A DNA stretch of 64,000 bases from a virus. Its lineage: Duplodnaviria > Caudoviricetes. Each line of letters starts with the position of its first letter. Positions within the stretch are counted from its first letter, which is position 1. The notes under the pieces were generated by a model. The model had not been told where the DNA came from. It was given only the letters and a program-made list of their open reading frames with translations, and ran no database searches. The translations under genes and the position numbers were made by a program. The DNA is taken from IMG/VR virus record IMGVR_UViG_3300015607_004160; one strand, given 5' to 3'. Below are positions 6,642 to 63,978 of the stretch, one piece after another.

Positions 6642-6869
6642 ATGATACACTGTCATATTTGTTATACTGAAAATGTTGATCCAGAATGGGTTTGTGATAG
6701 ATGTGAACAACATTATTGTGAGGATTGTTCTTATACATTTAGTCTTCATTATCAACATCAGGGAAACAGGTGTTATCAATGTGCTGATCAAAGTAGAAGA
6801 GAAAAATTACCAAATATAGATATATTAAGGGATAGGAAAATAAAAATATGGGCAAACCTTTTTTTATAA
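6642..6869 (+). CDS. Small Cys-rich zinc-finger protein with RDxKI tag
   Basis: Four CxxC pairs; C-terminal LRDRKIKIW. Confidence 0.7.
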   Translation: MIHCHICYTENVDPEWVCDRCEQHYCEDCSYTFSLHYQHQGNRCYQCADQSRREKLPNIDILRDRKIKIWANLFL

Positions 6870-6884
6870 AAATTTTCAAAATCT

Positions 6885-7079
6885 ATGAAGATAAAAGATA
6901 TATTAAAAGGTATAAGAAATAAAAGGAATAGATTAAGAGTAGGATATGTTTATGCTCCTTATGTGACAGTTCAAAGTATATCGGTGATAACAAATTTTCC
7001 GAAAAAATCATTATCTTTGAAATATTCAACAAATGATATTAATTCAAACTACTTCTCAAAAATTACGATTGAAAAATGA
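6885..7079 (+). CDS. Small protein resembling the C-terminus of T4-like major capsid protein (gp23)
   Basis: GYVYAPYV...NFPKKSLSLKY...NSNYFSKITI resembles gp23 C-terminal GxxYAPY..F.P....RY....Y..I.V. Confidence 0.55.
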   Translation: MKIKDILKGIRNKRNRLRVGYVYAPYVTVQSISVITNFPKKSLSLKYSTNDINSNYFSKITIEK

Positions 7080-7324
7080 ATCTACTCTGTAAAATGGGAT
7101 ATCATAAGTGGAAATACGACACACAACGTATGGTAATAAATCCGATGGAGGGTGAAAACTGGGGATTGGATGATATTGAAATGGATTGTACTATTCGATT
7201 ATGTGATAAATGTTGTAAAAAAGAAATTAATCGATATAGAGGTGAATGGAGAAAAACAAAATTTTACACTAAAGAAGAAAAGAGAGATATGAAGTTAAAA
7301 ATTTTAATAGGAAAAGACGTATAA
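7076..7324 (+). CDS. Small Zn-binding protein with RDxKL tag
   Basis: LLCKMGYHKW...CDKC; C-terminal KRDMKLKILI. Confidence 0.7.
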   Translation: MNLLCKMGYHKWKYDTQRMVINPMEGENWGLDDIEMDCTIRLCDKCCKKEINRYRGEWRKTKFYTKEEKRDMKLKILIGKDV

Positions 7325-7356
7325 AAAATAAATAGATAAAATGAAAGTAAATCAAC

Positions 7357-7578
7357 ATGAAATTTAAACCAGGTGATTTAGTTATTAAAAATACTGGTGG
7401 TAATAAAATGAGAATAGTTGAGTGTAAAGACGACGGTACAGTTGACTGTGTTTGGGCGACAGAAAGTTTACATGAAGGACTATTCAATGAGAATGATTTA
7501 GTTTCTATGAATGATTATAAATCAGCTATCATAAACGAAAAACGTGATGATTTAATCAATACAATACTAGGTAAATAG
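7357..7578 (+). CDS. YodC/DUF2158-like protein with RD tag
   Basis: FKPGDLV...GGNKM....VDCVW...F.ENDL; C-terminal KRDDLINTIL. Confidence 0.7.
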   Translation: MKFKPGDLVIKNTGGNKMRIVECKDDGTVDCVWATESLHEGLFNENDLVSMNDYKSAIINEKRDDLINTILGK

Positions 7579-7602
7579 TTATCTAATATTATATTTTAAA
7601 GA

Positions 7603-8361
7603 TTAGTTACTCCAATTAAACTCCTTAGCAACTTTAGATAATTCACTATCTGGCTCGTATTCCAAGACGGAAAATTTTGGATTATAATATCCACAAATTT
7701 CAGATTTATCTTTAAAGAATAATTTATATAAACTATTCTTTTCATCCCATATAGAGTCGATATTATTATCACTTATAAATTTTTTAAAATCCTCACTGTT
7801 TATAAAATGACTACCAGATCTATATCTATCTATATACGATTCAGATATTATTTTTAACAATTTATTAGATGATTTTTTCATCATAGACTCTACTACCTGA
7901 TACTTTTCATAGGCTTCTTTAGAATCAATTTTACTTGTATGATTTTCTAAAAATATTTTCAAGCTTTCTTCATCATATCCCCATTTTTCTAAAATATTAT
8001 TGATTTTATTTTCTTCTTTAATATTTAAATCTTCTATATTGATTGATTCAATTTTTTCCTCAATGGATCTCCAATCCCTATTTGTTGATTTTAAAGATTC
8101 AAGTGCTTTCACAATATCTTTATTAGATTTTTGTGAAAGTAAGTCTGTTAAAGCTTCTACAAACATTTCTTTACCAACGATTCTAGTAGGAATCATAATC
8201 TCTGGTCTAGCAACACCAAATGAACGAATGCTTAAAAAATCATCCATCAATTTCATTATTGAATTTTTAAATTCATTAACTTCTAATTCTTCATTAGTTA
8301 TTTTTACTGGGACTGGCTCTTGTCCAACTTTTGCTCCCGATACGATTGTAAATTTCCTCAT
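7603..8361 (-). CDS. Hypothetical protein (late)
   Basis: 252-aa ORF; TAATATATA at 8366-8374. Confidence 0.75.
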   Translation of the reverse strand: MRKFTIVSGAKVGQEPVPVKITNEELEVNEFKNSIMKLMDDFLSIRSFGVARPEIMIPTRIVGKEMFVEALTDLLSQKSNKDIVKALESLKSTNRDWRSIEEKIESINIEDLNIKEENKINNILEKWGYDEESLKIFLENHTSKIDSKEAYEKYQVVESMMKKSSNKLLKIISESYIDRYRSGSHFINSEDFKKFISDNNIDSIWDEKNSLYKLFFKDKSEICGYYNPKFSVLEYEPDSELSKVAKEFNWSN

Positions 8362-9252: not shown

Positions 9253-10080
9253 TTAATAATTAATAACCAGAATTTCTTGGCTCTCACCCATATTTTTCTT
9301 CCTGGCCACTTTTTCATAGTCATGTTTTATATTAACCACCTTATATTTACTTAATCTATCCATAAATGGATTTTCTATGCCTTTGTGTACGGATACGCCA
9401 CTTAATGCAAATCTGATACCCTGCTTATCTAGTATATCCAATGTATCATATAGATACTTTTCACTATCTTTAGACCAATAGTTATTGTATCCAGCTTCTG
9501 TTATTCCATAATATGGTGGATCTAAATAGATAAAATCTTCCTTAGTTAACTTATAAATTGAAAAGAAATTACTAAAATGATAGTTAGTAAAGGTTATATC
9601 CTTATTCCTCAATACATTACTATAATCCCTAATTTTCTTAATAGTATTGTCATTAATGGTTCTTTTGCCAAAGGTTTGATTAAATTTAAATTTTTGATTA
9701 AATCTCATCATATTATTGGTACATGAACTAACTAATGCGAAAAATAAGTAAGGATCAAATGTCTTATTAAATTCCTCCCTCACAGAAGCATATTGTTCCG
9801 GTGATGTTTTATCTATCTTATAAGATAATATCTTTTCAATCTCTTCTTCTATATTATCATCTTTAGTTGCTTTATATAGATTATCATAGAATTTAATTAG
9901 TGGACTTAATATGTCATTAGAAACCGTCTTATTGTAATCGGTATTGATACTAACTGATAATCCACCAGCAAAAACATCATAAAAAATTTGAACACTATCT
10001 TTGGATGGAAAATGTTCAATTAATTGTGTCATTATTTTATCTTTACTTCCACTATAATTTAAAGGGCTCTTCAATATCAT
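9253..10080 (-). CDS. Dam-like (D12 class) DNA adenine methyltransferase
   Basis: SPLNYSGSK, DVFAGG, MRFNQK..FN..FGKR, YLDPPY, EILVINY (T4 Dam-like). Confidence 0.9.
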   Translation of the reverse strand: MILKSPLNYSGSKDKIMTQLIEHFPSKDSVQIFYDVFAGGLSVSINTDYNKTVSNDILSPLIKFYDNLYKATKDDNIEEEIEKILSYKIDKTSPEQYASVREEFNKTFDPYLFFALVSSCTNNMMRFNQKFKFNQTFGKRTINDNTIKKIRDYSNVLRNKDITFTNYHFSNFFSIYKLTKEDFIYLDPPYYGITEAGYNNYWSKDSEKYLYDTLDILDKQGIRFALSGVSVHKGIENPFMDRLSKYKVVNIKHDYEKVARKKNMGESQEILVINY

Positions 10081-10229
10081 TCTAAAATATCATTTATTTT
10101 TTTATTTCTAACTTGATTTTTTGCTAATGCTTTTTTTCTATCAAATGTTTCATGACAAATTGAGCAACTAAACTCATAAAATAAAACAGCATAGTCCACC
10201 CTATCAGTTAAATATACTCTACCGCTCAT
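10077..10229 (-). CDS. 50-aa protein with C-terminal RNKKINDIL tag (not in the ORF track)
   Basis: MSGRVYLTDRVDYAVLFYEFSCSICHETFDRKKALAKNQVRNKKINDILE*; fills the gap with overlapping start/stop coupling on both sides. Confidence 0.75.
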   Translation of the reverse strand: MSGRVYLTDRVDYAVLFYEFSCSICHETFDRKKALAKNQVRNKKINDILE

Positions 10230-11356
10230 TATTTTATGTTAAAATGACTTTTAATTATTTCTTTGGCTATATCTTTAGATTTCAAGAAATATTTAGCACT
10301 ACCACTAGTTCTTAATATACCCAGTGATGATAAGACCTTTACAAAGTCATTAGCATCCTTTTGTAATATATTATTACCATTTAACTTAGATAATTCAATG
10401 ATAGATTTTGTGCTTGGTGCTTTATCATTGATTTTAGTATCAACATTATAAATAAGATCAATGATAGAATCATAAAGAATCCATTTTTGATAATTAGGAT
10501 CTCTTTCGATTTTCGCTCTGAACTCATTATATGTTCTAATTTTATAATATCTATTAAAATAAACACCAGCAAGAATTACAAATTCAACCAATGTTGAAAT
10601 AATGACAAAAAATAAAGTATTATTTTTATTTTCATTTTTTTTCTCACCACTTGACTCATTTATTTTAGACTCATACTCTTTTATTTTAAAATCTAGTTCG
10701 GCCTTAATTCTATTTATAGTTGTATCATTACTAACCAAATCAGTTCTTAATTGATCCCTTTCAATTTTTAAATCTCTTACTCTATTACGTTGTTGAGGAG
10801 TTAAGGGTTGAACCGCCTCTAGTGAAGTTTGTTCTTGATCTTTTTGTTCAATTTTACCTTTTATTATTTTAGAATCTTTTTCAATATCTTGAATTTTAAT
10901 ATTATAAATATTACTTAAACTATCTTCATATTTTTTAACATCTTGCTCAGCAATTACCTGTATTTGTTTTTCTTTAGTAGCAAATTCCTTAGCACCTGTA
11001 ATAGATGCGTAAAATGATATACTAACAATTGCAAATGATAATAACATCAATGGATAGATATTTTTATGTACAAATGTCTTTAATTTAATAGCTTGTGAAC
11101 TAAATTTTTGAAATATATCTCTTTTAAGTGATTCTAATCCACTTAATAATATAATAGACGCAATAAATACAACAAATGGATTATTAGTTATTGCTCCTTC
11201 TAGTATTTTAGATAGGAAAAAATAAGCTAAGAATATAGAAGAGATGTGTCCAAAAATAGAAAGGCCGAACATTACGGCATTAATATTTTTATACTCCTTT
11301 CCGAAGCTTTCCTCCTTAATAGAATCTTCTAATTTTTTATATTCATTTATATTCAT
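10229..11356 (-). CDS. Membrane protein with coiled coil
   Basis: Three N-terminal hydrophobic helices, a long coiled coil, a fourth TM helix and a C-terminal soluble domain. Confidence 0.75.
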   Translation of the reverse strand: MNINEYKKLEDSIKEESFGKEYKNINAVMFGLSIFGHISSIFLAYFFLSKILEGAITNNPFVVFIASIILLSGLESLKRDIFQKFSSQAIKLKTFVHKNIYPLMLLSFAIVSISFYASITGAKEFATKEKQIQVIAEQDVKKYEDSLSNIYNIKIQDIEKDSKIIKGKIEQKDQEQTSLEAVQPLTPQQRNRVRDLKIERDQLRTDLVSNDTTINRIKAELDFKIKEYESKINESSGEKKNENKNNTLFFVIISTLVEFVILAGVYFNRYYKIRTYNEFRAKIERDPNYQKWILYDSIIDLIYNVDTKINDKAPSTKSIIELSKLNGNNILQKDANDFVKVLSSLGILRTSGSAKYFLKSKDIAKEIIKSHFNIK

Positions 11357-11365
11357 TTTATTTTA

Positions 11366-11683
11366 TTATTTTTTTTTACCAAGAATCCTCTCCATAAATG
11401 TAAGCTTCCGATTTCTCTCTTTATCTAATCTAGATTCTAGGTCTTTTTTAACTGAATTATATTCAATTTTAATACTATTCAACTCATTTTCAACTTTATT
11501 TAGCATCATAGTTGATTCATCTAACTGACTCTTTAACTGTTCATTCTTTGCGTAAATAGCTCTATAGAAGTTTTTATATTTTAATAATAAAAATCGAGAC
11601 TCATCTTGATTTAGTCCCTCATTAAAATCTGAGGTCATTAAATAGTCTAATATGTCCTTTTCGGTTAAAAAGTCGTTTATCAT
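11366..11683 (-). CDS. Hypothetical coiled-coil protein
   Basis: 105-aa ORF. Confidence 0.7.
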   Translation of the reverse strand: MINDFLTEKDILDYLMTSDFNEGLNQDESRFLLLKYKNFYRAIYAKNEQLKSQLDESTMMLNKVENELNSIKIEYNSVKKDLESRLDKERNRKLTFMERILGKKK

Positions 11684-11704
11684 AGTTACTATATATTTAT
11701 TTTA

Positions 11705-12766
11705 TTAAAATCCCATTTCCATAGATTTACCCTTAGTTTTTTTATTTTTCAACACCTCTATTATTCTTGGATTATGAAATTTATTCTTTTGTCCTAAATA
11801 CTTACAAATTTCATCTACTGTAGACTTTTCTAATCTATCAACTTCTATAACATCAATTAGATTATTACACTCCAATAGAGTTGGGTCTATTTCATGTTCA
11901 TCTGGTGTGTTTAATATTGTGACTATATGAAGACTATCCATATCAGAGGAAACCCCATCTACCATTTGTAATAGGTTATTAGTAAATATATTAGACTTGG
12001 TATAAGCGTGTGAGAAGAATATTTCACAATCATCTATTACAAGTATAGAATTTCTATATCTCTTAATTATATTTTTAAATTCATTACTATTTATAGTAAC
12101 ATCAATCATATTAGCAGGAACAAAAATACACAATTTATCAATATTTGAAGCAATATGTGTAATTAATGTTGTTTTACCTGATCCTCTTTCACCATATATA
12201 ATACTCAATCCCTTTTTAGCATTTTTAATTGATTTTGTCAATCTTTTCGATTTTTTCATAACACTACTATTATAATAGAGATCAATATTATCATAATCGA
12301 AGTCTATTGGATCAATTGGTTCCAATTGCAATCCATCAGGAGTTAGTGTAAGTATATTAAATTTTTGCTGTACTCCATCTTGATAGTCAACTATAAAGGG
12401 TGATAGTGATTCTATTAAATTATTTGATTCTTTTTCAAATTCAGATTTGTAATAGATTGAGATATCTGTAATTACTCCTAATTCCGATGTTTTATCATAC
12501 TCAACAAATGATAAATATATACCATCATTTATCTTTACTAATGATTTTTCGTTAATTATAGAATCATCACCAGTTGGTATTATTTCTTTGGATAAAGTTT
12601 TTGAAATTGATATTTTATTTACAAACTCAACAAATTCCTTTATTTTATAAGTACTATAAATTGATATTTTATTTGGAATACCATCAAAATCAGCGGCACA
12701 AAAGAGATAATCGTTTATTGATGGATCATCTTTATTTATATTTAAATTTAATTTATTATTAATCAT
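11705..12766 (-). CDS. AAA+ ATPase
   Basis: GERGSGKTT Walker A, LVIDDCE Walker B, NLLQMVDG; the Arg-finger region looks degenerate (DPTLLECNN). Confidence 0.8.
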   Translation of the reverse strand: MINNKLNLNINKDDPSINDYLFCAADFDGIPNKISIYSTYKIKEFVEFVNKISISKTLSKEIIPTGDDSIINEKSLVKINDGIYLSFVEYDKTSELGVITDISIYYKSEFEKESNNLIESLSPFIVDYQDGVQQKFNILTLTPDGLQLEPIDPIDFDYDNIDLYYNSSVMKKSKRLTKSIKNAKKGLSIIYGERGSGKTTLITHIASNIDKLCIFVPANMIDVTINSNEFKNIIKRYRNSILVIDDCEIFFSHAYTKSNIFTNNLLQMVDGVSSDMDSLHIVTILNTPDEHEIDPTLLECNNLIDVIEVDRLEKSTVDEICKYLGQKNKFHNPRIIEVLKNKKTKGKSMEMGF

Positions 12767-22029: not shown

Positions 22030-22173
22030 AAGGATATATATTAAAATATTATATGACTTTATCTAGCTCTTCTAATTTAGACAAATCTAAATAAAAAATA
22101 TATAGTAATATATTCCAAGTGCTATTAGAAGACTTTGCCAACTCATTTTTTCATCTAAATATAAATATGGATA

Positions 22174-22464
22174 TTAATCTTTAATATGTTGATAAATGCC
22201 GTCCTCTCTTATTGTCCATTTCCGTTGTTTAAGTATTTCCATCTTATCATTAGATGATTTAGCCATATCCTCATAGGTAAATCCAGCTTTATAGGCAGCT
22301 GCATATAAGGCCAATAAACAATCTACATATTCCATAATATCAGATGATTCTTCTATAGCCTCATCTGCTTCTTCTTTTAATTTTCTAAGATGTTCGATTG
22401 GTCCTGCTTGTGGGAAAACCTTTAATGATAGGTCTCCAAGTGATTCATAAATATCTTTATTCAT
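22174..22464 (-). CDS. dATP/dGTP pyrophosphohydrolase (DUF550, MazG-like)
   Basis: GPIEHLRKLKEEADE..DIMEYVDC..KM....RKW..DG..H. Confidence 0.75.
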   Translation of the reverse strand: MNKDIYESLGDLSLKVFPQAGPIEHLRKLKEEADEAIEESSDIMEYVDCLLALYAAAYKAGFTYEDMAKSSNDKMEILKQRKWTIREDGIYQHIKD

Positions 22465-22798
22465 TTGTTATCTCGTCTATTTTATTATCCCTAATTGTTA
22501 TCCTATAAAACTCTTCCACTTTATCCATTGTTTCTTTTATACCTAGAACGTTTTTAATTATAAAATTGTAATCCGCAGTAATATTCATCGCCCTATTTCC
22601 ATTAGTCATTTTGACATAATCATCAACAAAATACTTTTTAGCTTCTTCGATATTTACTTTCTTATTTAAGAGATTAAAAAATCTATTAAAAGATTCTATA
22701 TAATCACTTGATAATATTAAGTACACCTCTTTTTCAAATAATTTAAAACTATAAGCACTAATACTAATATTAACCTCTGGAATTTCATTGTTTAACAT
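22457..22798 (-). CDS. Hypothetical protein with C-terminal RDNKIDEI tag
   Basis: Start reassigned to MLNNE, downstream of AAAAC-N17-ATATAA. Confidence 0.7.
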   Translation of the reverse strand: MLNNEIPEVNISISAYSFKLFEKEVYLILSSDYIESFNRFFNLLNKKVNIEEAKKYFVDDYVKMTNGNRAMNITADYNFIIKNVLGIKETMDKVEEFYRITIRDNKIDEITNE

Positions 22799-29708: not shown

Positions 29709-29955
29709 ATAGTAAACTATCAATTTTCTTATCTCTCTCAAGTGAACTCAGATATAATTTATATTCATCTTCATAATAAATCTTATTAGCAAGTTCCATA
29801 ACTGATTCAAACGCATCTTGTGGATGCGTCATTCCACCAAATTTACCGGATTTAATATCCTCACATTTAATTGAAGTAAGTATAGCAAGAGCAGCTAATA
29901 ACATCTTGCCTTCATCAGTTTCTTGGCTAAATTTTGCAAATTCTATATTTATCAT
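29707..29955 (-). CDS. Hypothetical protein with C-terminal RDKKIDSLL tag
   Basis: 82-aa ORF. Confidence 0.7.
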   Translation of the reverse strand: MINIEFAKFSQETDEGKMLLAALAILTSIKCEDIKSGKFGGMTHPQDAFESVMELANKIYYEDEYKLYLSSLERDKKIDSLL

Positions 29956-39501: not shown

Positions 39502-40236
39502 ATGAAAGTACTTTGTATTAAAAATAACTCTAAGTTAGTTAAAGGGGCTACTTATGATGTCTTATCTATAAATACCCTTCAGCCAACAAACGGACCAACT
39601 GTTAGAACATCTGTTGGACTTTTTAGTGCTAACTACTTTAAATCAGTAGATAATAGCGACCTACCACAGATAAATTGGGAATCACCAGAATACACAAATA
39701 GTAAAAATGAAAATTCATCCTATATTAAAGACGTAAGAGGTCTCAAAAAAGGTGATATTGTAGTTTGTAAATGGGGGAGCAGTAAATTTTTTGAAAAGGG
39801 TAAGATGTATAAAATTAGTGATATTTTATACAAAGTAGAACAAAAAACAAACTATAACGGGCAACCATATAATAACATTGAGCAAAAAATAAAAATTGAG
39901 GGATATAACAGATGGTTAATGATTTATCGCTTTAGGGAATGTAACGCTCAAGAAAAAAGAAATATATCATTGAGTGGATTATTTGATGAAGAAGTAAAAA
40001 CCGTTGACTTAACAACCATCAAAAAATCAAGAAAAATTGACCGATTAGAAGATAGTGAAAAAAATCGTGTATTGCTATCTACACTTTTATCAGGTATTGT
40101 AGATCCATCTAGAAACACCTTATCAGCAACTGAGTGGGCGGCTCAAAAGAAGGGTAAAAATTATGATATAACCGAAAAAGATTTTAAACCATTACTTAAT
40201 AAAAAATTAAGTGATATAATTAAAATGTTTGATTAA
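39502..40236 (+). CDS. Hypothetical protein with two SH3-like modules
   Basis: KVLCI..LVKGATYDV and KKGDIVVC..FEKGKMYKI repeats. Confidence 0.7.
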   Translation: MKVLCIKNNSKLVKGATYDVLSINTLQPTNGPTVRTSVGLFSANYFKSVDNSDLPQINWESPEYTNSKNENSSYIKDVRGLKKGDIVVCKWGSSKFFEKGKMYKISDILYKVEQKTNYNGQPYNNIEQKIKIEGYNRWLMIYRFRECNAQEKRNISLSGLFDEEVKTVDLTTIKKSRKIDRLEDSEKNRVLLSTLLSGIVDPSRNTLSATEWAAQKKGKNYDITEKDFKPLLNKKLSDIIKMFD

Positions 40237-42713: not shown

Positions 42714-43043
42714 TTATACACTAAAGCTCGAACCACATCCACAAACGCGGGAAGCATTGGGGTTAATCCATTCAAAACCTTTACCATTTAATCCATCCGA
42801 ATAGGTAAGTTCAGTGCCCCATAAGTATAGAATACTTTTTTTATCACAGACAATATTAATAGCACCGTTATCAAATATTTCATCGTGTTCATTTATCTTA
42901 TCATCAAAATCCATTTTATATGATAATCCTGAGCAACCACCACCAGTAACACTAACTCTCAAATTGTGTGTATCGGGAGTAATACCATCACTCATCATTA
43001 ATTCAATAACATGGTCCATCGCTTTTTCACTAATAGTAATCAT
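42714..43043 (-). CDS. iscA: Fe-S cluster assembly A-type carrier (IscA/HesB)
   Basis: GGGCSGLSY, NPNA..CGCGSSF. Confidence 0.95.
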   Translation of the reverse strand: MITISEKAMDHVIELMMSDGITPDTHNLRVSVTGGGCSGLSYKMDFDDKINEHDEIFDNGAINIVCDKKSILYLWGTELTYSDGLNGKGFEWINPNASRVCGCGSSFSV

Positions 43044-43354
43044 AATAATATCATATCTAATTTTTTATCTCTCGTGTATGAGTAGAATTTACTATAGGTC
43101 TCACTTTTAAATTTTGATGTAAATTTCTTTTCATATGAAACTTTATATTTATAATTTTTCTTTTCTTTTTTAGTAGAAAAGTCGAAATATCGATTTTCTG
43201 ATATCTCAACAACTACACAGTTATAAAATACGAAATGTCTTTCGGAATGTTTTGAATATTCTATAGTTGATGGTATTTCACATTTCTCCTCAAGAATAAA
43301 GTGAAACATATTATCCTCATATGAAGATCCTATTATATTAAGCTTAGTAGTCAT
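43040..43354 (-). CDS. Hypothetical protein with C-terminal RDKKLDMIL tag
   Basis: Start reassigned to MTTKL; the upstream Met-rich extension is a shadow of the acidic tail of the neighbouring gene. Confidence 0.7.
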   Translation of the reverse strand: MTTKLNIIGSSYEDNMFHFILEEKCEIPSTIEYSKHSERHFVFYNCVVVEISENRYFDFSTKKEKKNYKYKVSYEKKFTSKFKSETYSKFYSYTRDKKLDMILL

Positions 43355-52737: not shown

Positions 52738-54279
52738 TTAATCTTCTTTTTCAATAAGGATTTGTTTTACCTTATTGTTTGTTCTTGAGATAGGTACTTT
52801 TGTACCAATTGAAATCAGAAGTACATTGCCTTTAATCTTAGACAGGTCTAAGTGGTCACAGTATCCATCAGTCAATACGAGTGTATTGAATTGATTGAAG
52901 TGTTCAGCCACATAGTTAATAGCTGGTTGAAGAACAGTACCCCCTAATCCTTTGATAGGAATAGATTCTAAGTGTCTCTTAGATTTGATATTCTGAACCC
53001 ATTTTACTTGTGTATCTGCTTCGATCAAGTTTACTTCAATATCATTACGATAGATGTAAGACAATACACGTTCAAATGTACCACCCATAGAACCAGATGT
53101 ATCAAGGATACAGTTGATCTTCGTCTTGATCTTACGATTGCCTTTTAGACCTTGAATTTGACGACGGTTAGGTTTGGTAACAGTCTTTTGTTTCTTAGTT
53201 CCGAAGATAAGATTTGATACTGAACGTTTGATATGTTTTAAATAATCTTTTCTCTTCTTACGAAGTTTGTTAAGGGTTTGTTCAATATTACCACCTTGAA
53301 GGCCACGTGCCTGGAGTCTTTCCATAGCATCTTTAACCATTGATTCTCGCATTTCTTCTGGAACTTCATCACCCATGTGTACGTCCATGTATTGACCTTC
53401 ATTATTTTCTATATTATCAAAGATTTGATCAAGAGAATATGTGTCAATAGTTCCTTTTTCATTTTTAGGGTCTTTACCGTAAGCACCGTATGAAGGGTTG
53501 CCTTGTGAGTCTTTACCACTCTCACCACCAGTTCCATTACAATCTGGACAAGGTTCGCCTTTACCATGTTGGTGTCCACCTGATTGTTGACCACCACCTT
53601 GTGATTGGTCTTGTGATTGTTGGTCACCTTGACCCTGACCTTCACCTTGTTCGCCTTGGCCTTCACCTTTTTCTTTTCCTTGACCACCTTCTGATGGACC
53701 TTGTTGTCCGGGTTGATTACCTTTACCGCTCTGAGGTTTCTGACCTGTTCCGTTACAAGTAGAACATTTACCGTTCTTTTGCTGCTTTTTACGATGTTCT
53801 TCTTGTTTATCACGAAGCCACTCATAAACTTCTTCAAAGATAAGTTTTCCTTTGTATTCTTTAGGAATAAACAAAGCCATGTTACGTCCTGAGTCATCCT
53901 TAGGAATTTCAACGAAAGTGTTAGGAATATCTTCCCAAATGATATGATTGATAATCATATCTTGAGCAATGTTAGAAAGTTTGTGGTCGTACTGACCAGT
54001 GATAGTACGTTTTGGGTGATTCCAAAGTAAGTGGAAGTCCTCATGAAGAGTAATAAAGTTTACTTCTTTTTGAGAAAGTTTTTCTAGGAATTCAGAATTG
54101 TAATAAAACTGCATTCCTTTTGTGGTCATATTAACGCCACAAGTGGGAAGACTTTTACTCTCATGGAAAGTAACAAAAAGGTTGAAGTTACCGTAGTAGG
54201 GTAAGTTCACCTTAGTATCAATCAACATAACTTGGATTGATTCCATTAACTTTTCGTGAATGTTTTTTAATTGAGTCAT
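52738..54279 (-). CDS. Metallopeptidase-like (HExxH) plus VWA domain protein (DUF2201 type), typical MoxR partner
   Basis: LHEDFHLLWNH, NIAQDMIIN, PNRR, LDTSGSM MIDAS, GLGGT, VLTDG. Confidence 0.85.
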   Translation of the reverse strand: MTQLKNIHEKLMESIQVMLIDTKVNLPYYGNFNLFVTFHESKSLPTCGVNMTTKGMQFYYNSEFLEKLSQKEVNFITLHEDFHLLWNHPKRTITGQYDHKLSNIAQDMIINHIIWEDIPNTFVEIPKDDSGRNMALFIPKEYKGKLIFEEVYEWLRDKQEEHRKKQQKNGKCSTCNGTGQKPQSGKGNQPGQQGPSEGGQGKEKGEGQGEQGEGQGQGDQQSQDQSQGGGQQSGGHQHGKGEPCPDCNGTGGESGKDSQGNPSYGAYGKDPKNEKGTIDTYSLDQIFDNIENNEGQYMDVHMGDEVPEEMRESMVKDAMERLQARGLQGGNIEQTLNKLRKKRKDYLKHIKRSVSNLIFGTKKQKTVTKPNRRQIQGLKGNRKIKTKINCILDTSGSMGGTFERVLSYIYRNDIEVNLIEADTQVKWVQNIKSKRHLESIPIKGLGGTVLQPAINYVAEHFNQFNTLVLTDGYCDHLDLSKIKGNVLLISIGTKVPISRTNNKVKQILIEKED

Positions 54280-56887: not shown

Positions 56888-57460
56888 TCATAGTGATTTT
56901 ATAGATTGATTTAGCACTTCAATTGGACTTAACTCTGCATTCACTTCACAAAGCTTTCCACTTCTTTCATAAAAATCAACTAGTGGTTTGGTTTGTTCTT
57001 CAAATTCTTTAAATCTCCTTTCTATTACCTCATCACTCATATCATCTTTTCTATTTTCCTTCTCAGCTCTTTTTTTTATTCTTTCTTTAGCTGTCTTTTC
57101 CGATAGCTTAAGATATATAACAGATTTTAAATCAATATTGATTTCCTCTAATAGTGACTCTAACTGATGTGCTTGATTTATAGTTCTTGGAAAACCATCT
57201 AAGATAATATTCTTACTTGAATCCTTTTTTATTTCATCTTTAAGTAGTCTAAAAATAATGTTATCTGGAACAAGTGTTCCCTGTGCCCTATAGACACTTT
57301 TTAATTCTGGATCATTTGAATTTCTAATTAAATCACCAGTGGATATATGAACAAAGTTATCTATTGGAATTAATGCTTTAGCAAGTGTTCCTTTACCCGA
57401 CCCAGGAGACCCAACTAATGAAACACAATATTTTTTGAAAAATGGTTTAATATATTTCAT
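56888..57460 (-). CDS. adk: Adenylate kinase (short-LID type)
   Basis: GSPGSGKGT, HISTGDLIR, GTLVPD, LDGFPRT..QA, RKDD. Confidence 0.93.
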   Translation of the reverse strand: MKYIKPFFKKYCVSLVGSPGSGKGTLAKALIPIDNFVHISTGDLIRNSNDPELKSVYRAQGTLVPDNIIFRLLKDEIKKDSSKNIILDGFPRTINQAHQLESLLEEINIDLKSVIYLKLSEKTAKERIKKRAEKENRKDDMSDEVIERRFKEFEEQTKPLVDFYERSGKLCEVNAELSPIEVLNQSIKSL

Positions 57461-57918
57461 ATATTTAAGTTTCGACTAATTTTAATAAAATTAACTGATT
57501 CCGAATAATATCCGTTTGACTCACCCAACCATCTTAAAGTAACATATCCTTTAATTGTAGCCAAATTATAAAATGTCCATGTGTATGAGTCATTGCCATA
57601 CCCCACATTATCTGGCTCATCACCTACATCCTCAGAAGACTTAAGTATTGGATTACCAATTAAATCTTCTAGATCTCCTACAATATCATATAATCGAACA
57701 TACTCACAACAGTCTTGATCGTGATACATACAATAATTATTACCACTTTCACAATAAAATGCAATTTCTGTACTATTCCTATTTATTACAATGTCAAAAA
57801 TCGTTTCACCAATTAAAGATGATACCTCACATCTTCCTAATTTTCTATAAACTAGTGAATGTTGGTGCCCAATAAATTCGTCATTAGATTTTGATTCGTA
57901 ATATTTTATATATTTCAC
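57457..57918 (-). CDS. Phage protein with HDQDCCE motif and N-terminal tag
   Basis: MKYIKYYES; HDQDCCE.V, TWTFY..T.KG.V..RW.GESNGYYSE, a common phage family. Confidence 0.75.
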   Translation of the reverse strand: MKYIKYYESKSNDEFIGHQHSLVYRKLGRCEVSSLIGETIFDIVINRNSTEIAFYCESGNNYCMYHDQDCCEYVRLYDIVGDLEDLIGNPILKSSEDVGDEPDNVGYGNDSYTWTFYNLATIKGYVTLRWLGESNGYYSESVNFIKISRNLNI

Positions 57919-57922: not shown

Positions 57923-58726
57923 TTATATCTTGACTTTTATGATATCACCAACAAATGATACATATTCAACTCCAATTGATTTCAACTCAGTATCTAAATT
58001 AAACTTCTCAGATGCCCTTAACTCTTTTTTAAAGACTAAGGTCTTTTCAGGTTTGTCACCATCCAAGTTAGCTTTAGATTCTTCTACTAACTTTTCTTCA
58101 ATTTGGAATTTCTTAAGAATATCAGATACTTTCTCTGTCAGTGTTTTTTCTGATAATTCTTTTGGTCTCCATCTGCTTCCCTTCCATTCACCTTCATATG
58201 ATTTTTGAAATTCAATTTCCTTTCCTGTGTTATTTGAAAAATAAGCATCTAGAATATATGGTGAATTTTCGGAATAAACCCAACCATCTTCATCAATTAT
58301 ATCTTTTACTATATCCCAATAGTTAAATTTTCCATTTGGGTCAGAATAGGCCCTTTCAAATCTATTATCAAATTCTACTGATTCATTTACTAATTGAATA
58401 TCTTCATTTGATTCTAAAGATTCAAAGTAAGCTGAGTCCATTTTCTTTTTAGATAAGATTTCAAATATATCATTAGCAGCATTTTCGATATTTGATTTAC
58501 GTTCAATTTTATCAGAAGACTCATTGATTGGATTTACATAATAAGACCATTTAACAACATTGTTATTAAGTTCAGGCTTAGAAATTTCTACCTTAACTTG
58601 TGCTTTTTTAGAAGATGCAACTACCTCAAAAAAATAGTTACCCTTATTTGATTTTTCTGAAATTCTTACAGATTCAAATAAATTTTTTAAATCATAATCG
58701 ATTTTATTGATGTTTTCTTTTATCAT
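57923..58726 (-). CDS. Hypothetical protein
   Basis: 267-aa ORF with several L/V-x-E-S sites. Confidence 0.75.
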   Translation of the reverse strand: MIKENINKIDYDLKNLFESVRISEKSNKGNYFFEVVASSKKAQVKVEISKPELNNNVVKWSYYVNPINESSDKIERKSNIENAANDIFEILSKKKMDSAYFESLESNEDIQLVNESVEFDNRFERAYSDPNGKFNYWDIVKDIIDEDGWVYSENSPYILDAYFSNNTGKEIEFQKSYEGEWKGSRWRPKELSEKTLTEKVSDILKKFQIEEKLVEESKANLDGDKPEKTLVFKKELRASEKFNLDTELKSIGVEYVSFVGDIIKVKI

Positions 58727-58730
58727 ATCT

Positions 58731-59183
58731 TTATTTCTTTTTTATTATTTCTTTTTTAAGCTCAGTGGATATCCATATATATTTTTCATCATTTACGACA
58801 TCTCCAATTTCTAATAATATGTCCTCCAAATAATCTTCTTTTTCGTTATTACCACAAGACAAAAAATCATTAACATATCCATTTAAATTGGGATTTTTTA
58901 ATGAATATAGGTACTCTATAACATTTTTATTTTCTTTTATCATAAAAAATTCATTGAATTTAATAACACTTTCTGCATACAAAGGCAGTCCATCATGTTT
59001 AGTTTTGGCGAAAGATTTTAAATTTTTTAATCCGTTCTTTTTATTTTTCTTTGTAAACGATTTTGCAATATCTCTTATACTGTCAGGACAATTATCTGCT
59101 TTTCCAGTAGCGCAAGCATAGGCATACCCCATAAGTTTTCTTTGTTGCACAGAAACTGCTTTTTTTCTTTTTGCTTTACTCAT
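58731..59183 (-). CDS. DUF3008-like protein followed by an internal tag
   Basis: AVSVQQRKLMG.A..IAKS..LKSFAKTKHDGLP, then VIKFNEF; late motif at 59189-59197. Confidence 0.7.
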   Translation of the reverse strand: MSKAKRKKAVSVQQRKLMGYAYACATGKADNCPDSIRDIAKSFTKKNKKNGLKNLKSFAKTKHDGLPLYAESVIKFNEFFMIKENKNVIEYLYSLKNPNLNGYVNDFLSCGNNEKEDYLEDILLEIGDVVNDEKYIWISTELKKEIIKKK

Positions 59184-59241
59184 AAAGATATATATTAAAA
59201 AGATAAAATTGCATTTTAAATGCTCTCTATCTAACATCTCT

Positions 59242-59847
59242 TTATGATATATTTATGATAGATTCAATGTGTGATCGTTTTCTATTTTCAAGTGTGGTAA
59301 ATCTTTTCTCTTGTTCTTTATCAAAGTAAAGGGTCATTTCACGAGCGTGAATATGTGGAATATAAACTTCATAATATAAATTTCGATCACCGGTGTCAAT
59401 TAGAGTGAACCCGTTTTCATTACTACTTGATTGTAAAACAACTAGAAGAGATCCTCGTTGAATAGATCTTTTAATATAAATAGATTTATAAAAACTATAG
59501 TTTAATTGAGTTGATTTATCTTTTAATAGAATATCCCAATTTATGATAGATTTTTCCTGTAAGGTACTCAATTCGGTCTTTTCACTATTGATTGTAAAGT
59601 CTATCTTTTTAAACATCTTATTTAGTCTAAGTACTTTCCTAAGTAAGTAAAATTTTAGTACTCTTATATTTCTAAACTTAAGTTTATATAAGGCTATTAG
59701 AAATAGGGAGTATCCTAAAAAATAATAACCCAATGGTATCATATACCATTGGGGATCATTAGATCTAAATAAGTGTTCTATTCCTGAGGTAAGAAAGGAT
59801 AAAACGCCTGAAATAATAGTTATTATTAAGAATAGAATAATCTGCAT
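59242..59847 (-). CDS. Membrane protein
   Basis: Two N-terminal TM helices. Confidence 0.7.
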   Translation of the reverse strand: MQIILFLIITIISGVLSFLTSGIEHLFRSNDPQWYMIPLGYYFLGYSLFLIALYKLKFRNIRVLKFYLLRKVLRLNKMFKKIDFTINSEKTELSTLQEKSIINWDILLKDKSTQLNYSFYKSIYIKRSIQRGSLLVVLQSSSNENGFTLIDTGDRNLYYEVYIPHIHAREMTLYFDKEQEKRFTTLENRKRSHIESIINIS

Positions 59848-59874: not shown

Positions 59875-61632
59875 TTATTTTATTACATCATCAATCTTAA
59901 TATCACGAAGAACCTCAACAGGAAGACTAAGATCATCATTTAATTTGATAATATTAAATCCACCTGGAATATTAATCACAACATCACAACCACCTCTAAC
60001 TTGATGTTGAATATAATCCGATAAATCGAATTTGGTATTATATATAGCAGTATTAGTTTGATTATAGATAACTGCCGCGATTCCAATAGTTCCCCTAAAA
60101 TTCGGAATTAAAACTCCTCCTACAATTTCGCATTCAGTCATTTCGTCACCTTTTTCTTCTTGTAATTTTTGATACTCTTTTAATGTCATAACCGATCCGA
60201 ATCCAGTTGAACTTAGATATCTAACAATTTTTTTATCATTTTGATGAATTTCAAATGAGGTTTCATCATCTGTTATTTCAAATTTAGTACCAACGTCCTG
60301 ATAATCACCAAGAATTACTATATCTGTAGGTGTGCCGAATTCAACAAGACTTTTAAATTTTTCTTCCGTACCTTCTTCTAGTTTATTAATTAGTTTTTCT
60401 TCGTTTTGTTTTTCAGCAGACTCGTTGGTGTCGTCACTTCCATACATAGCAAAGTAGGAATTACTACCACACATTTTATCAAATTCCGGATCTTGTGAAA
60501 ATCCGTACTTAATCATTTTATCAACAATATCATGCCATTTAAGATCCCCGTTATAGACCAATTTTTCATTATCAAGAGAAGTCCCAATTTTCTGCAATGA
60601 TAATTTAATATCGTCAGGTAAACTATTGTAGTCAGTAATTTCAGCCAGTACATCTATGCTTTTAGCACCAATTCTGATTTGATATTCACCCGCCTCAAAC
60701 AACTTCATAAAAGCATCAGCATTAATACTTTTGAGTTTAGATACCTTATCATAAATTAATTTGGCAGTTGCTTCGTCTAATACAATTTTTTCATTTAATT
60801 GTTCAGATACAAAAAAGTAATATCCATTAGGTTCTGTAGGCGGCTGAAGTGAATCAATCCTTGATTCTAATACTCGAATATCAGTTTTTGCGGTTTCAAT
60901 CTTCCCTTCAGCTTGAACTTTTTCATACTGATACCTTTTCAACTCTTGGGTTTGTTGGTCAAGCCTGTTTTTTAATTCGTTTAGTTTTTCTTCTTTCATT
61001 TTAGCAAAAGATTCTTCCATAGCCTTCTGTGCATCAGATTTAATTTCTTCATCTGACTCTCCCTCAAACTCACGATTGATTTCTTCATCATTTTCGGATG
61101 AAAGTAAAGTTTCAGCGAGTGATTGTTCTCCCTCATCAAACATTGATAGAAGGTCGCTTAATTTTGAATTCTGCTCATCAGAAACCTCAATAGTATCTTC
61201 ATCATCAAAAATAGATGCTAATTTAGAAATGGGAGTTTGATATTCAACCGCGAGATAGAGGCTGATTTCTTTATCTTTAATTTTCTGAACTGATTTAAAT
61301 GGAAGTTCAGTAACAACCATATTGTTGTTAAACATACTGATTGTTTTTTCAGAAATCACATCTAAAAGACGTTCTCTTTGTTCAACAGTAGTTTTATTTG
61401 TATCAACTTCATCAAAGTTAACAGTTCCTTCATCACAAATAGTTAATTTGAGTGTGATACCATCCATATCCAATCCGGATAAGTGCTTAGCTTCAATAAG
61501 TGCTTCATCTGCGTGAAATTGAATGTTTCCACGTCCACCAACAAATTCAAGAAACTTTTCCTTTGGTTTGAATTGACCAATTACCTTTTCTTTCGGTTGA
61601 TCTTGTACTTGTTCTGTGTTTACATTATCCAT
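59875..61632 (-). CDS. Large acidic coiled-coil protein with C-terminal RDIKIDDVI tag
   Basis: 585-aa ORF; TATCTTTG at 61652-61659 upstream. Confidence 0.8.
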   Translation of the reverse strand: MDNVNTEQVQDQPKEKVIGQFKPKEKFLEFVGGRGNIQFHADEALIEAKHLSGLDMDGITLKLTICDEGTVNFDEVDTNKTTVEQRERLLDVISEKTISMFNNNMVVTELPFKSVQKIKDKEISLYLAVEYQTPISKLASIFDDEDTIEVSDEQNSKLSDLLSMFDEGEQSLAETLLSSENDEEINREFEGESDEEIKSDAQKAMEESFAKMKEEKLNELKNRLDQQTQELKRYQYEKVQAEGKIETAKTDIRVLESRIDSLQPPTEPNGYYFFVSEQLNEKIVLDEATAKLIYDKVSKLKSINADAFMKLFEAGEYQIRIGAKSIDVLAEITDYNSLPDDIKLSLQKIGTSLDNEKLVYNGDLKWHDIVDKMIKYGFSQDPEFDKMCGSNSYFAMYGSDDTNESAEKQNEEKLINKLEEGTEEKFKSLVEFGTPTDIVILGDYQDVGTKFEITDDETSFEIHQNDKKIVRYLSSTGFGSVMTLKEYQKLQEEKGDEMTECEIVGGVLIPNFRGTIGIAAVIYNQTNTAIYNTKFDLSDYIQHQVRGGCDVVINIPGGFNIIKLNDDLSLPVEVLRDIKIDDVIK

Positions 61633-61691: not shown

Positions 61692-62096
61692 TTATTGATT
61701 ATCAATTATTTCGTCAATACCAATCTCTCTTCTCTTAATAAGAGCTTCTTCATCACTTAAGGGAGGTGGTATTTTTTCGCCTTTGGAATTAATAAGATTT
61801 TGTACTTTAATAAATTTATCACCAGTTTCTTTACCAAGCTCTATCATATCCGTGTCTGCTATTTCAAAATCATCACCAGATAAGTCAGGAAGACAATCAT
61901 ATATAATTTGTAATTCCGGTCCAAATTTTTCAAAGTTCTTCATAACAACTGGATCATCATCATCATAAGAGTCAGTGGATAAAACTAAAAGAAGAAGCAA
62001 TTCTTTTCTACTTAGCTGCTTCATCTTTTCCACTTGACTAATTACATTAAAATTTTGATAAATGTCAATAAATAAGTCACTTACTTCTTTATTCAT
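61692..62096 (-). CDS. Hypothetical protein with C-terminal RREIGIDEII tag variant
   Basis: 134-aa ORF. Confidence 0.7.
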   Translation of the reverse strand: MNKEVSDLFIDIYQNFNVISQVEKMKQLSRKELLLLLVLSTDSYDDDDPVVMKNFEKFGPELQIIYDCLPDLSGDDFEIADTDMIELGKETGDKFIKVQNLINSKGEKIPPPLSDEEALIKRREIGIDEIIDNQ

Positions 62097-62427
62097 TTTC
62101 TAATAGTTTTGATATTACGTAATCACGGTATTCTTTTGGAACATCTTTGGATCCAATAGTTTTACCTGCTTCACCAGTGACGGAACCTAATTCAAATGCC
62201 TTACGGAAAAATGCCTCAAAAATGGTATCATTCTCAAGTTCTTTAGCTGCCATTGCTCGGTTGATTGCTTTAGTTTCATCAGTAATTAAATTAGCCTGAC
62301 GATAAGCCAGTTGTTCCTCAACTTTCTTATCACCACCGGCTTTTGTAATTATATCCTTAACGCGAGTATAATTTTTTAAAAATTCTTTCTCTGATTGACC
62401 TTTGATTTTTTTTGATCTTGTTGCCAT
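62089..62427 (-). CDS. Hypothetical protein with C-terminal RDYVISKLL tag variant
   Basis: 112-aa ORF; promoter variant TATCTTTA at 62480-62487. Confidence 0.75.
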   Translation of the reverse strand: MATRSKKIKGQSEKEFLKNYTRVKDIITKAGGDKKVEEQLAYRQANLITDETKAINRAMAAKELENDTIFEAFFRKAFELGSVTGEAGKTIGSKDVPKEYRDYVISKLLENE

Positions 62428-62497
62428 AATGTTTATTTAAATTAATTTTAACGCAATTTGGTCGCAATTTTTCATCTTATAAAGATACGAAGATTTT

Positions 62498-62917
62498 TTA
62501 ATAAATGAAAAAATCTTTTAGATGTGAGACATCTTCACAGATAATTGATATATCGAGGCTTCTTCTGAAATCGGGATTATATTTATATCTATTGGTATTT
62601 TTTAGGAAATTTAAAATTGTATTCATTTCGGATGTAGAATCAGTGACCTTATCATACACTGTTATTTCTTGTATATAGTCAGTGGTGTCTGAAAAAAATT
62701 GATATTCCTTTACATTAAAAACTGTACCAAGCGTTATATCTACATCTAATTCTGACCTATTGATAATACCAAATGTTAGGTTTTGTGTTATATAACCAAC
62801 TTTATCGTTTTCTATTTCACATATAATATATTTTGTTCCATAGTCAAATAGCCGATAATGAATTAATCCTTTATCAACTAATATGTATCTATTTTCAAAC
62901 AAAAATTTACTATTCAT
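62498..62917 (-). CDS. Hypothetical protein
   Basis: 139-aa ORF coupled to the upstream gene. Confidence 0.65.
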   Translation of the reverse strand: MNSKFLFENRYILVDKGLIHYRLFDYGTKYIICEIENDKVGYITQNLTFGIINRSELDVDITLGTVFNVKEYQFFSDTTDYIQEITVYDKVTDSTSEMNTILNFLKNTNRYKYNPDFRRSLDISIICEDVSHLKDFFIY

Positions 62918-63284
62918 CAAAATCTGCTAAAGGTGTATCTTGAAGTAATCTTTTTCTATCCTTATTTCTCGCCTTCTTTGTATCTGTAGAAGTATACATA
63001 GTGGAGGGAACCATATAAGTTTGATTTAGATCAACTGGCTGACGATAAGACTCTAATTTGAAATTATCATTTGCTAATTCTTTAACTATTGATAACATGT
63101 GTTGTCTAATGTCTAAACTATTTAGCACATCTAGAGCATATCCGTATTTGTGTGCCATATAGTTTATAAAAGACATAGGAATATAAAGATATCCGTTGTC
63201 TTTGACATTATACCAAAAGTCTAAATTAACAGCAAGTTCTTTTGGAACAAGTATTGATAATTCTGTTTTAATTGTTTCTAACAT
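62910..63284 (-). CDS. Hypothetical protein immediately downstream of the RNase P RNA
   Basis: Start reassigned to MLETIK; the ORF-track N-terminal 58 aa overlap the structured RNA. Confidence 0.7.
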   Translation of the reverse strand: MLETIKTELSILVPKELAVNLDFWYNVKDNGYLYIPMSFINYMAHKYGYALDVLNSLDIRQHMLSIVKELANDNFKLESYRQPVDLNQTYMVPSTMYTSTDTKKARNKDRKRLLQDTPLADFDE

Positions 63285-63299
63285 ATTTATATTTTTAAA

Positions 63300-63520
63300 A
63301 AGATGATGAGCGTGCCCGCGATTCTGTTTTATTCTATCATTTATCTCACCTTGCGGTGGCCTTTCGGCTGCCCTAACCCGACCATTATTGAGAAACCGAC
63401 ACTCTAGGTCTGTACAGGTTGCTACTTCTTTGGTATAACGACTTATTAGGTCTTCCAAATTAGGTTTTGTAGTCGCGAAGTTCCTCTAGTTTTCACCAGC
63501 GATAGATCCTCTTTCATCTT
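63300..63520 (-). ncRNA. rnpB: Minimal RNase P RNA (catalytic domain intact, specificity domain nearly deleted)
   Basis: GC-rich island: P1 AAGAUGA/UCAUCUU, P2 UCUAUC/GAUAGA, P3 CUGGU-GAAA-ACUAG, CR-I GAGGAACUUCGCGAC, CR-V ACAGAAUCGCGGGCA, P5 CUAC/GUAG, P6 AACC/GGUU, P7 UUUGG/CCAAA, P15-17 with L15 GGU, CR-IV AGAUAAAU. Confidence 0.85.
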
Positions 63521-63978
63521 GATAATATTTCGAGATTAAATTCTCGTCGATTACGTTCTTTGTAATTATCAATAAATTTTCTTAATAAAGGATGAATATG
63601 CTTATATTCAATCGGTGTGACATCATCAATTTTTCCTATATATTCTTCAAAGACATAGAAAAGATTCTCAGGAGTGACCTTCATTGTATTAATCATACAT
63701 AGATAGTTTAACACCCTTTCCTTTTTTGGATCTATTGTTTCATTACTTCTATTCCATTTTGCCATCCAGGCTAGCTTTAATGACATTGCTTCAAAGTCTC
63801 TCAAAACAACTCCTTGCCACCAATCGGAAAATTCATCATTCCGAACAATTGGGTCAAATCCAATCATAGATTGATATTTTTCCCAAATATAACTTATATG
63901 AGAATTAACAAGGTATGAATCTTTGACAACCTTGTGAAATAATAAAGAAAATGCTATTATGTTATTTGTCTTACTCAT
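63514..63978 (-). CDS. Hypothetical protein with C-terminal RREFNLEIL tag variant
   Basis: 154-aa ORF; its stop codon overlaps the 5' end of the RNase P RNA. Confidence 0.75.
   Translation of the reverse strand: MSKTNNIIAFSLLFHKVVKDSYLVNSHISYIWEKYQSMIGFDPIVRNDEFSDWWQGVVLRDFEAMSLKLAWMAKWNRSNETIDPKKERVLNYLCMINTMKVTPENLFYVFEEYIGKIDDVTPIEYKHIHPLLRKFIDNYKERNRREFNLEILSR

Follow-up and report, generated by a model that had tools for sequence, protein, structure and literature searches.

A Portable C-Terminal Tag on Unrelated Proteins of a Huge-Phage Lineage, and a Possible Common Reader

Why should proteins that have nothing else in common end in the same short amphipathic sequence? The question is raised by a stretch of 64,000 nucleotides from a virus of the Caudoviricetes (Duplodnaviria; IMG/VR record IMGVR_UViG_3300015607_004160), hereafter called the window, which has a GC content of 27-33% and is densely coding under genetic code 11. 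A previous inspection of these letters, the sequence-only reading, had noticed eleven unrelated proteins with C-terminal ends of the type R-D-x-K-I-x-x-I-L, and had taken them for a short linear motif that docks varied cargo on one hub and is never combined with another tag lying at the N-terminus. As documented below, the C-terminal tag (C-tag) is real, portable, helical, conserved and lineage-specific, and it marks a non-late class of genes that excludes the class bearing the N-terminal tag (N-tag). We consider it reasonably probable that it constitutes a portable docking helix, all carriers of which are handled by one co-evolving reader. A search of the literature found no description of the tag.

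The Tag in the Window

The 92 open reading frames (ORFs) called greedily in the window (20,399 aa) were scanned with the core pattern R[DNE]..[ILV]..[ILV][ILVM], a match being counted as C-terminal when it starts within the last 16 residues; a strict form requires K and [IL], and a looser form allows T or S at the last position. The core motif closes eight ORFs (those at 7076, 7357, 10077, 29707, 43040, 59875, 61692 and 62089) against two internal matches in 18,927 positions (Fisher p 1.6e-10), the numbers expected from composition being 0.07 and 1.9, respectively. In its strict form the motif occurs five times at C-termini and not once internally. All eleven ends of the sequence-only reading are present in the ORFs to which it had assigned them, and are listed here with one degenerate copy, in ORF 39502, that was not among its terminal cases.

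7283..7321, + strand: RDMKLKILI followed by GKDV, closing the 82-aa ORF 7076-7324; strict match, with R 13 residues from the end
7543..7575, + strand: RDDLINTIL followed by GK, closing the 73-aa ORF 7357-7578, which has a phrog_3261 body; core match
10080..10109, - strand: RNKKINDIL followed by E, closing the 50-aa zinc-ribbon-like ORF 10077-10229; strict match
22460..22492, - strand: RDNKIDEIT followed by NE, closing the 118-aa ORF 22457-22813; looser tag, with T at the last hydrophobic position
29710..29736, - strand: RDKKIDSLL, closing the 82-aa ORF 29707-29955 exactly at the stop codon; strict match
43043..43072, - strand: RDKKLDMIL followed by L, closing the 132-aa ORF 43040-43438; strict match
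59878..59907, - strand: RDIKIDDVI followed by K, closing the 585-aa ORF 59875-61632; strict match
61695..61730, - strand: REIGIDEII followed by DNQ, closing the 134-aa ORF 61692-62096; core match
62092..62127, - strand: RDYVISKLL followed by ENE, closing the 112-aa ORF 62089-62427; core match
63517..63546, - strand: REFNLEILS followed by R, closing the 154-aa ORF 63514-63978; looser tag, loose match
6828..6866, + strand: RDRKIKIW followed by ANLFL, closing the 75-aa ORF 6642-6869; marginal end with R-D-x-K-I only, a doubtful member
40195..40233, + strand: LNKKLSDII followed by KMFD, closing the 244-aa ORF 39502-40236; degenerate pattern lacking the arginine, a doubtful member

The marginal end of ORF 6642 lacks the distal hydrophobic pair. 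Two internal copies that had also been proposed, IRNKKLIDL in ORF 38941 and KRNISLSGL in ORF 39502, did not hold up: they match the loose form only, of which 12 internal occurrences are seen and 7.5 expected. Just downstream of the tagged ORF 43040-43438, and overlapping it by 4 nucleotides, lies a gene for an iron-sulphur cluster assembly protein of IscA/HesB type (42714-43043, - strand; PF01521, E 8e-15). A different common tail, ...K.LYA.DF..WLKNNG[FL], is found in the adjacent ORFs 44834-46855 and 46845-47663 (- strand; 673 and 272 aa), which are apparently paralogues and have no match in Pfam or PHROG.

Genome-Wide Census in the Close Relatives

The nearest relatives of the window in the phage collection are LR756502 and LR745206, two uncultured phages of 634-642 kb. 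The complete genome of LR756502 (642 kb, assembled from 13 overlapping 50-kb pieces; 997 ORFs) was used as an independent relative for a census, in which the core motif is found to end 104 of the 997 ORFs (10.4%). Internal matches number 56 in 187,027 positions, corresponding to a 44-fold terminal enrichment (p 1.4e-102), and the controls gave a single match each for the core motif at N-termini and for the reversed motif at C-termini. The recurrent C-terminal motif noticed by the sequence-only reading thus holds both in the window and in its relative. In LR745206, of which the first 50 kb were sampled, the tag is carried by 20 of 106 ORFs, and its frequency among tag-positive genomes ranges from 10 to 19% of ORFs.

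The position of the tag is nearly as regular as its sequence. In 42 ORFs of LR756502 the distance of the arginine from the end is exactly 10 residues, and in 84 it is 9-12; 13 copies begin 18-27 residues before the end. The logo of this genome reads [ILV]-R-[D 58%, E 22%, N 20%]-x-K(63%)-[I 58%, L 40%]-[N/D/S/E]-x-[I 66%, L, V]-[L 75%, I], then 0-3 polar residues; across tags of this type, hereafter type A, 0-7 variable polar residues (D, K, N, G, S, E) follow. The carriers are small (median 124 aa), and their bodies, once the tail is removed, fall into 99 BLAST components among 104 proteins, which excludes a single paralogous family as the source of the motif. Searches of Pfam and PHROGs with tagged proteins returned almost no annotation; among the 20 largest carriers of LR756502, Pfam recognised only a DUF6011 protein and a riboflavin kinase, the latter having its domain at residues 2-128 of 214, followed by an added tail with the tag. 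Tagged genes also tend to be neighbours, with 23 adjacent pairs in LR756502 against 10.8 expected. Chance and AT-rich composition are excluded by the internal, N-terminal and reversed-motif controls, and also by the composition-matched phage Lak-A1 (26% GC), in which the tag is found on 0-1 of 185 ORFs.

Selection, Conservation and Structure of the Tag

Is the signal borne by the DNA or by the protein? The copies in the window use differing codons for R, I, L and K, and the synonymous codons at the tag positions of LR756502 equal the genome background, except for isoleucine at +7, the sole codon-biased position (ATA 54 seen vs 35 expected, p 2e-5). Since the codons of the tag vary and follow the background, the signal is selected at the protein level. 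By the same token, a signal in the DNA, be it the promoter or ribosome-binding site of the next gene lying in frame or a cassette junction, is excluded.

Tags are retained in three protein families at about 30-56% identity. For the 585-aa protein encoded at 59875-61632, 55 of 120 homologues have an end of RD.KI..II type, ...RDIKIDxIIK, down to about 40% identity. One subgroup of this family (P0035, P0036, P0039 and P0056) has lost a C-terminal domain of about 170 residues and has kept RDIKIDTIIK, now placed directly behind a short acidic linker; P0037 and P0040, sisters of this subgroup, are truncated in the same way and lack the tag. In the family of 62089-62427 (21 members), an indel-prone linker of 0-12 residues is followed by the nearly invariant EYRDYVISKLL, and in that of 43040-43438 the pattern R-[DEN]-x-K-[IL]-x-x-[IL]-L is found in five of six full-length homologues at 30-52% identity. 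Between the window and LR756502, six tagged proteins have a homologue in the other genome. Four are tagged in both, among them ORF 7357-7578, the LR756502 homologue of which has retained the tag as REDKINNILK; one pair differs in tag presence, the homologue of 61692-62096 having another tail without the tag, hence a gain or a loss; and the sixth proved to be a spurious hit of the loose pattern. A distant LR756502 homologue of ORF 63514-63978 ends in RDYKLSLLV.

In AlphaFold2 models the tag forms a terminal helix, at residues 572-584 of the 585-aa protein and at residues 98-110 of the 62089-62427 protein, in which a four-helix body and a disordered stretch (82-95) precede it. The placement of the tag helix has low confidence, as expected for a tethered motif, and so has the linker before it. 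On a helical wheel drawn from the logo, R0, D1, K3, I4, I7 and L8 lie on one face and the variable x2 and x6 on the opposite one. A fold search with the model of the 585-aa protein gave no match. The sequence-only reading was thus right in seeing a short linear motif on varied cargo, as judged from the 99 unrelated bodies, the conservation among orthologues and the portability just described; on this comparative evidence, the tag is autonomous and transferable among unrelated proteins.

Distribution Among Huge Phages and a Second Dialect

Three other huge phages lack the tag, Lak-A1 being one of them. It was found on none of 204 ORFs of LR756503 (735 kb), and LR756508 (484 kb) yielded one spurious match in 207 ORFs. 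LR756504, which represents a sister lineage (636 kb; 204 ORFs in a sample of 100 kb), has an altered form of the tag, type B, on 30 ORFs belonging to 21 unrelated groups: F-x-T-[LI]-x-E-[HY]-R-K-x-I-I-x-[ED]-L-[LI], mostly ending exactly at the stop codon. When the two types are compared with a pattern in which positions +1 to +3 are left free, position +1 is K in 63% of the tags of LR756504 vs 2% of those of LR756502, where D, E or N account for 84%, and position +3 is I in 67% of the former vs K in 61% of the latter.

If the tag co-evolved with one reader, it should change in concert on many unrelated proteins, as is seen here, and the switch may be considered the strongest indirect argument for a common partner. 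The idea of a single hub put forward in the sequence-only reading is to this extent supported indirectly; none of the hubs it had named (MoxR, a peptidase) could be tied to the tag. In LR756504, the regions 221-5305 and 21754-24789 contain tandem arrays of ORFs of 70-110 aa ending in ...F.T[LI].E[HY]RK.II.[ED]L[LI], some of them paralogous (BLAST groups of 5 and 4), suggestive of a local expansion of tagged genes.

Regulatory Class and the N-Terminal Tag

The N-tag, MK[YH][LI]K..(YK)[IL]FE[SD], opens at least 60 ORFs of LR756502, and in the window it opens 21397-22029, 41563-42642, 47684-48871, 57457-57918 and about 15 more ORFs. We take it to resemble the capsid-targeting sequence (CTS) of phage T4, with its (L/I)-x-E cleavage site. 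The mutual exclusion of the two tags that had been proposed from the window is not significant in the window alone, but it stands in LR756502, where the C-tag is found on 0 of the 60 N-tagged ORFs (6.3 expected, P = 0.0011).

The two sets of genes differ also in their upstream regions. We scored the 9-mer TAATATATA within 80 nucleotides upstream of each gene and found it, in LR756502, before only one of the 104 C-tagged genes but before 32 of the 60 that bear the N-tag; among the remaining 833 genes, 133 have it (p 1.8e-6). It was not found upstream of any tagged gene of the window. From the 9-mer to the start codon that follows, the distance is 10-35 nucleotides. The motif is common in the vicinity of the gp23-like capsid gene, five neighbours of which have it; the exact 9-mer was not found at the gp23-like gene itself. 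It is probably a late promoter. In the window, it also lies upstream of each of two genes for homing/HNH endonuclease-like proteins, 27275-28924 (+ strand; phrog_3339, E 3e-120) and 48858-49724 (- strand; phrog_559).

Most C-tagged genes (70%) abut the preceding gene. Among those having an upstream region of their own, TATATTT(G) precedes 12 of 19, against 54 of 286 for comparison. The -7 box of Bacteroidota is TAnnTTTG, and TATATTT(G) resembles it. The sequence-only reading had assigned most tagged genes to early or middle promoters, which is not demonstrated, even if the absence of TAATATATA from all but one of the 104 genes and the excess of TATATTT(G) lean in that direction. The upstream counts show that the C-tagged genes are not late, and suggest that they are early. 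The broader claim that C-tagged and N-tagged genes form different regulatory classes is borne out by the same figures.

The Search for a Reader

Which phage protein could read the tag? The genome of LR756502 encodes a Clp toolkit of two strong ClpP paralogues with a weaker third, ClpS and a ClpC-like unfoldase of 707 aa. Their genes are as follows, the three ClpP-like ones being given together.

58607-59281, 112095-112817 and 364437-365003: ClpP-like
205085-205279: ClpS
440544-442667: ClpC

About 45 acidic residues of low complexity replace the N-terminal domain (N-domain) of this ClpC, which retains the AAA, lid, UVR coil, AAA_2 and D2-small domains and a VGF loop. Two strong ClpP genes and a ClpC-like gene are likewise present in LR745206 and LR756504. 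The gene directly upstream of ClpC has a conserved tag-like end, ERR[DE]EI[IL]D.[LV]LNN, in LR756502 and five other large contigs, and the gene directly downstream of one ClpP of LR756502 is tagged. The N-domain-less ClpC (alignment A2) was also modelled in complex with the C-terminal 51 residues of the 585-aa protein; the score, 0.00, is evidence neither way. ARAGORN found 46 tRNA genes and no transfer-messenger RNA (tmRNA) in LR756502.

Other families that might have provided a reader were also searched. In LR756502 no match was found to MoxR AAA_3, nor to Lon or MecA, and the shell protein of bacterial microcompartments (BMC; PF00936) and encapsulin (PF04454) are absent from LR756502, LR756504 and LR745206. 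The window contains a putative DUF2201 metallopeptidase fused to a VWA-like domain (52738-54279, - strand). A reader of MoxR-VWA type is rejected, given the lack of AAA_3 in LR756502 and the presence of DUF2201 relatives also in the tag-free LR756503 and Lak-A1. A half-size peptidase of the M16 (insulinase) type is encoded at 32817-33926 (- strand).

One conserved block of the window deserves mention. It spans 10077-12766 (- strand) and comprises an AAA+ protein (11705-12766, 353 aa), a protein of 105 aa, a protein of 375 aa (10229-11356) and the tagged small ORF; the block recurs in LR756502, where the equivalent last gene is also tagged. The 375-aa protein is found only in the three tag-positive genomes among 50,697 phage records, and in LR756504 its gene lies directly downstream of the ClpC-like gene. 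We regard it as a lead, though one inseparable from membership of the clade. Look-ups of the 375-aa and AAA+ proteins in Atlas, PDB and PHROG provided no function.

How Could the Tag Work?

In functional terms, these observations create a puzzle: What would about a hundred small, unrelated proteins gain from a common end? In the explanation that we favor, the tag would be an address helix of about 10-13 residues, [ILV]-R-[D/E/N]-x-K-[I/L]-[N/D]-x-[I/L/V]-[L/I] followed by 0-3 polar residues, which a flexible linker would carry at the C-terminus of about a tenth of the clade's proteins, these being small, mostly orphan and of a non-late-type promoter class. The face of the helix formed by R, D, K and three hydrophobic residues would dock on a single common reader that co-evolved with the tag, and all tagged proteins would in consequence be handled as one group. 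Both the single reader and its action are inferred. On circumstantial grounds, the pair of phage ClpC and ClpP is the best named candidate. The handling might then consist of timed disposal or tethering by the phage Clp machinery, that is, the N-domain-less ClpC with two ClpP paralogues, a proposal that we make tentatively and hold to be rather unlikely as it stands. Formulated in full, and with equally low confidence, the tag could be the substrate-selection code of a virus-encoded proteolysis in which ClpC with ClpP1 and ClpP2 would clear the early proteome at a set time; the small tag-bearing proteins encoded beside ClpC and ClpP would perhaps assist, and types A and B would be lineage-specific dialects of one code.

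Several facts speak against a common reader in general and against Clp in particular. The A/B switch is known from one type B genome, over 100 kb, in which some carriers form small tandem paralogue groups, and no phage reader emerged from the family checks (MoxR, Lon, MecA, DUF2201, BMC, encapsulin). The presence pattern of any clade-specific gene would fit that of the tag equally well. As to Clp, Lak-A1 has ClpP and an AAA_2 protein without the tag, and LR756503 and LR756508 have ClpC-like genes without it; with 10% of genes tagged, tagged neighbours of ClpC and ClpP are near chance, and the tagged neighbour of ClpC represents a single orthologous event. Furthermore, the tags have variable polar ends and sometimes lie 17-27 residues from the end, unlike degrons of ssrA type, which are read at the free carboxyl end.

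Alternatively, the partner could belong to the host, the helix docking early phage proteins on an abundant host protein such as RNA polymerase, the ribosome, an AAA+ unfoldase or a chaperone, in which case the reader would not be found in the phage genome. That the family checks yielded no phage-encoded reader agrees with this, as do the non-TAATATATA class and the TATATTT(G) enrichment, which would suit early host-takeover proteins, and the phage ClpS, an adaptor for the N-domain of host-type ClpA/ClpC. Yet about 100 proteins competing for one host site are hard to square with diverse takeover functions, and a change of the tag throughout a lineage would call for a corresponding difference between hosts; we deem a host hub unlikely. 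A role in localisation, with the helix loading proteins into a phage-built assembly or compartment, is somewhat less probable still. The tag does have the physical form of encapsulation peptides, being a short amphipathic helix at the terminus, with unrelated cargo and a linker that is little conserved, and its exclusion of the T4-CTS-like N-tag is what two alternative addresses would produce. However, the three tag-positive genomes have no PF00936 or PF04454 gene, no compartment is known for the clade, and the tagged genes avoid the TAATATATA class common to N-tagged genes and the neighbours of the gp23-like gene, which makes loading into the head unlikely.

The two remaining explanations dispense with a reader. 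It seems to us very improbable that the helix acts within or between the tagged proteins, by self-association, clustering or as a stabilising or solubilising cap, even if an amphipathic helix could pair with itself and the carriers are as small as noted above. One face has an invariant arginine together with conserved D/E/N and K, the other tolerates variation, and this points instead to a specific pocket; moreover, the modelled helix stands detached after a disordered linker and is not packed on the body, and promiscuous pairing among about 100 proteins would seem harmful. Least credible of all is that the tags are functionless remnants of an ancestral module or scars of recombination at cassette junctions. 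Their excess of adjacent pairs, and the small tandem paralogue groups to which some carriers belong, especially in LR756504, would be expected of shared descent. Against it, the background codon usage implies that there is no conserved element in the DNA, strong purifying selection acts on the tag next to linkers prone to indels, and the tag survives the loss of a domain on bodies that are unrelated, at a position fixed relative to the C-terminus. A docking helix with one co-evolving reader remains the explanation that we favor.

Significance of the Tag

Should 10-19% of the proteome of a 0.6-Mb phage indeed be in the hands of one reader, the tag would provide a single handle on about 100 proteins of unknown function per genome, and the identity of the reader would tell whether the carriers are destroyed, concentrated or delivered together. 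If true, this would be a code for sorting or disposal on the scale of a proteome, the first to be described in a bacterial virus, and possibly a small portable module for the control of proteins in Bacteroidota-type hosts. The tag is in any case an easy sequence marker of non-late genes in genomes that cannot yet be cultured. What is new here is the whole-genome census with its controls, the codon test, the evidence from domain loss and linkers, the depletion of TAATATATA and the A/B switch, together with negative phyletic checks for MoxR, DUF2201, BMC, encapsulin and the sufficiency of Clp.

Comparison with Known Systems

In physical terms, the tag is close to the encapsulation peptides of BMC (the N-termini of PduP, PduD and EutC, and the C-terminus of CcmN) and to the cargo peptides of encapsulins, all of which address unrelated cargo to one shell protein. 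Like them it is an amphipathic helix at the terminus, roughly two to four turns long, attached by a linker that is little conserved; unlike them it has no cognate shell gene in the three tag-positive genomes, and its clients are far more numerous and consist of small orphans rather than pathway enzymes. The CTS of T4 is likewise a phage-encoded address peptide common to unrelated proteins. It is, however, an N-terminal sequence of late proteins that is removed by cleavage after (L/I)-x-E. The C-tag lies at the other end, its genes avoid the TAATATATA class, and it never occurs together with the N-tag. The clients of T4 gp45 and the tails of T7 gp2.5 and gp4 also represent several phage proteins that reach one hub by a common C-terminal peptide, but they are a handful of DNA enzymes with unrelated sequences, compared with about 100 small orphans and a riboflavin kinase here; the tag logo shows neither the sliding-clamp motif QL[SD]LF nor an acidic/hydrophobic tail of T4 type. 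Docking of the vWA-MoxR kind, as in NorD-NorQ, would imply co-occurrence with MoxR, which is not seen in LR756502.

Helical LxxLL motifs, the nuclear-receptor boxes, present basic-[IL]-x-x-[IL]-L on one face and bind in a groove with flanking charge contacts. The residue pattern is the same as in the tag; these boxes are eukaryotic and have no evolutionary link with it, so that the likeness concerns only a possible mode of action. A parallel in logic is offered by the C-terminal degrons and tethers of Clp proteases (ssrA, read by ClpX, ClpA and SspB; C-motif 2 of MuA type; the XB tail of SspB on the N-domain of ClpX), which are also short transferable C-terminal peptides directed to one machine. 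As in these systems, the unfoldase and protease are at hand, since tag-positive phages encode a ClpP pair and a ClpC-like unfoldase, with ClpS in addition in LR756502. The sequence of ssrA is unrelated: the phage tag is helical with conserved charged residues, is encoded in the gene rather than added by tmRNA, and ends in variable polar residues in place of the nonpolar free end LAA-COOH. An overview of jumbo phages mentions phage ClpP, ClpS and ClpA/ClpX and no such tag (PMC7824862). In phage SPO1, the adaptor-like protein Gp53 modulates the host ClpCP (PMC6873191); it is a single protein acting on the ClpC of the host, with no common tag and no phage ClpC or ClpP, and it sets a precedent for the steering of ClpC-ClpP by a phage.

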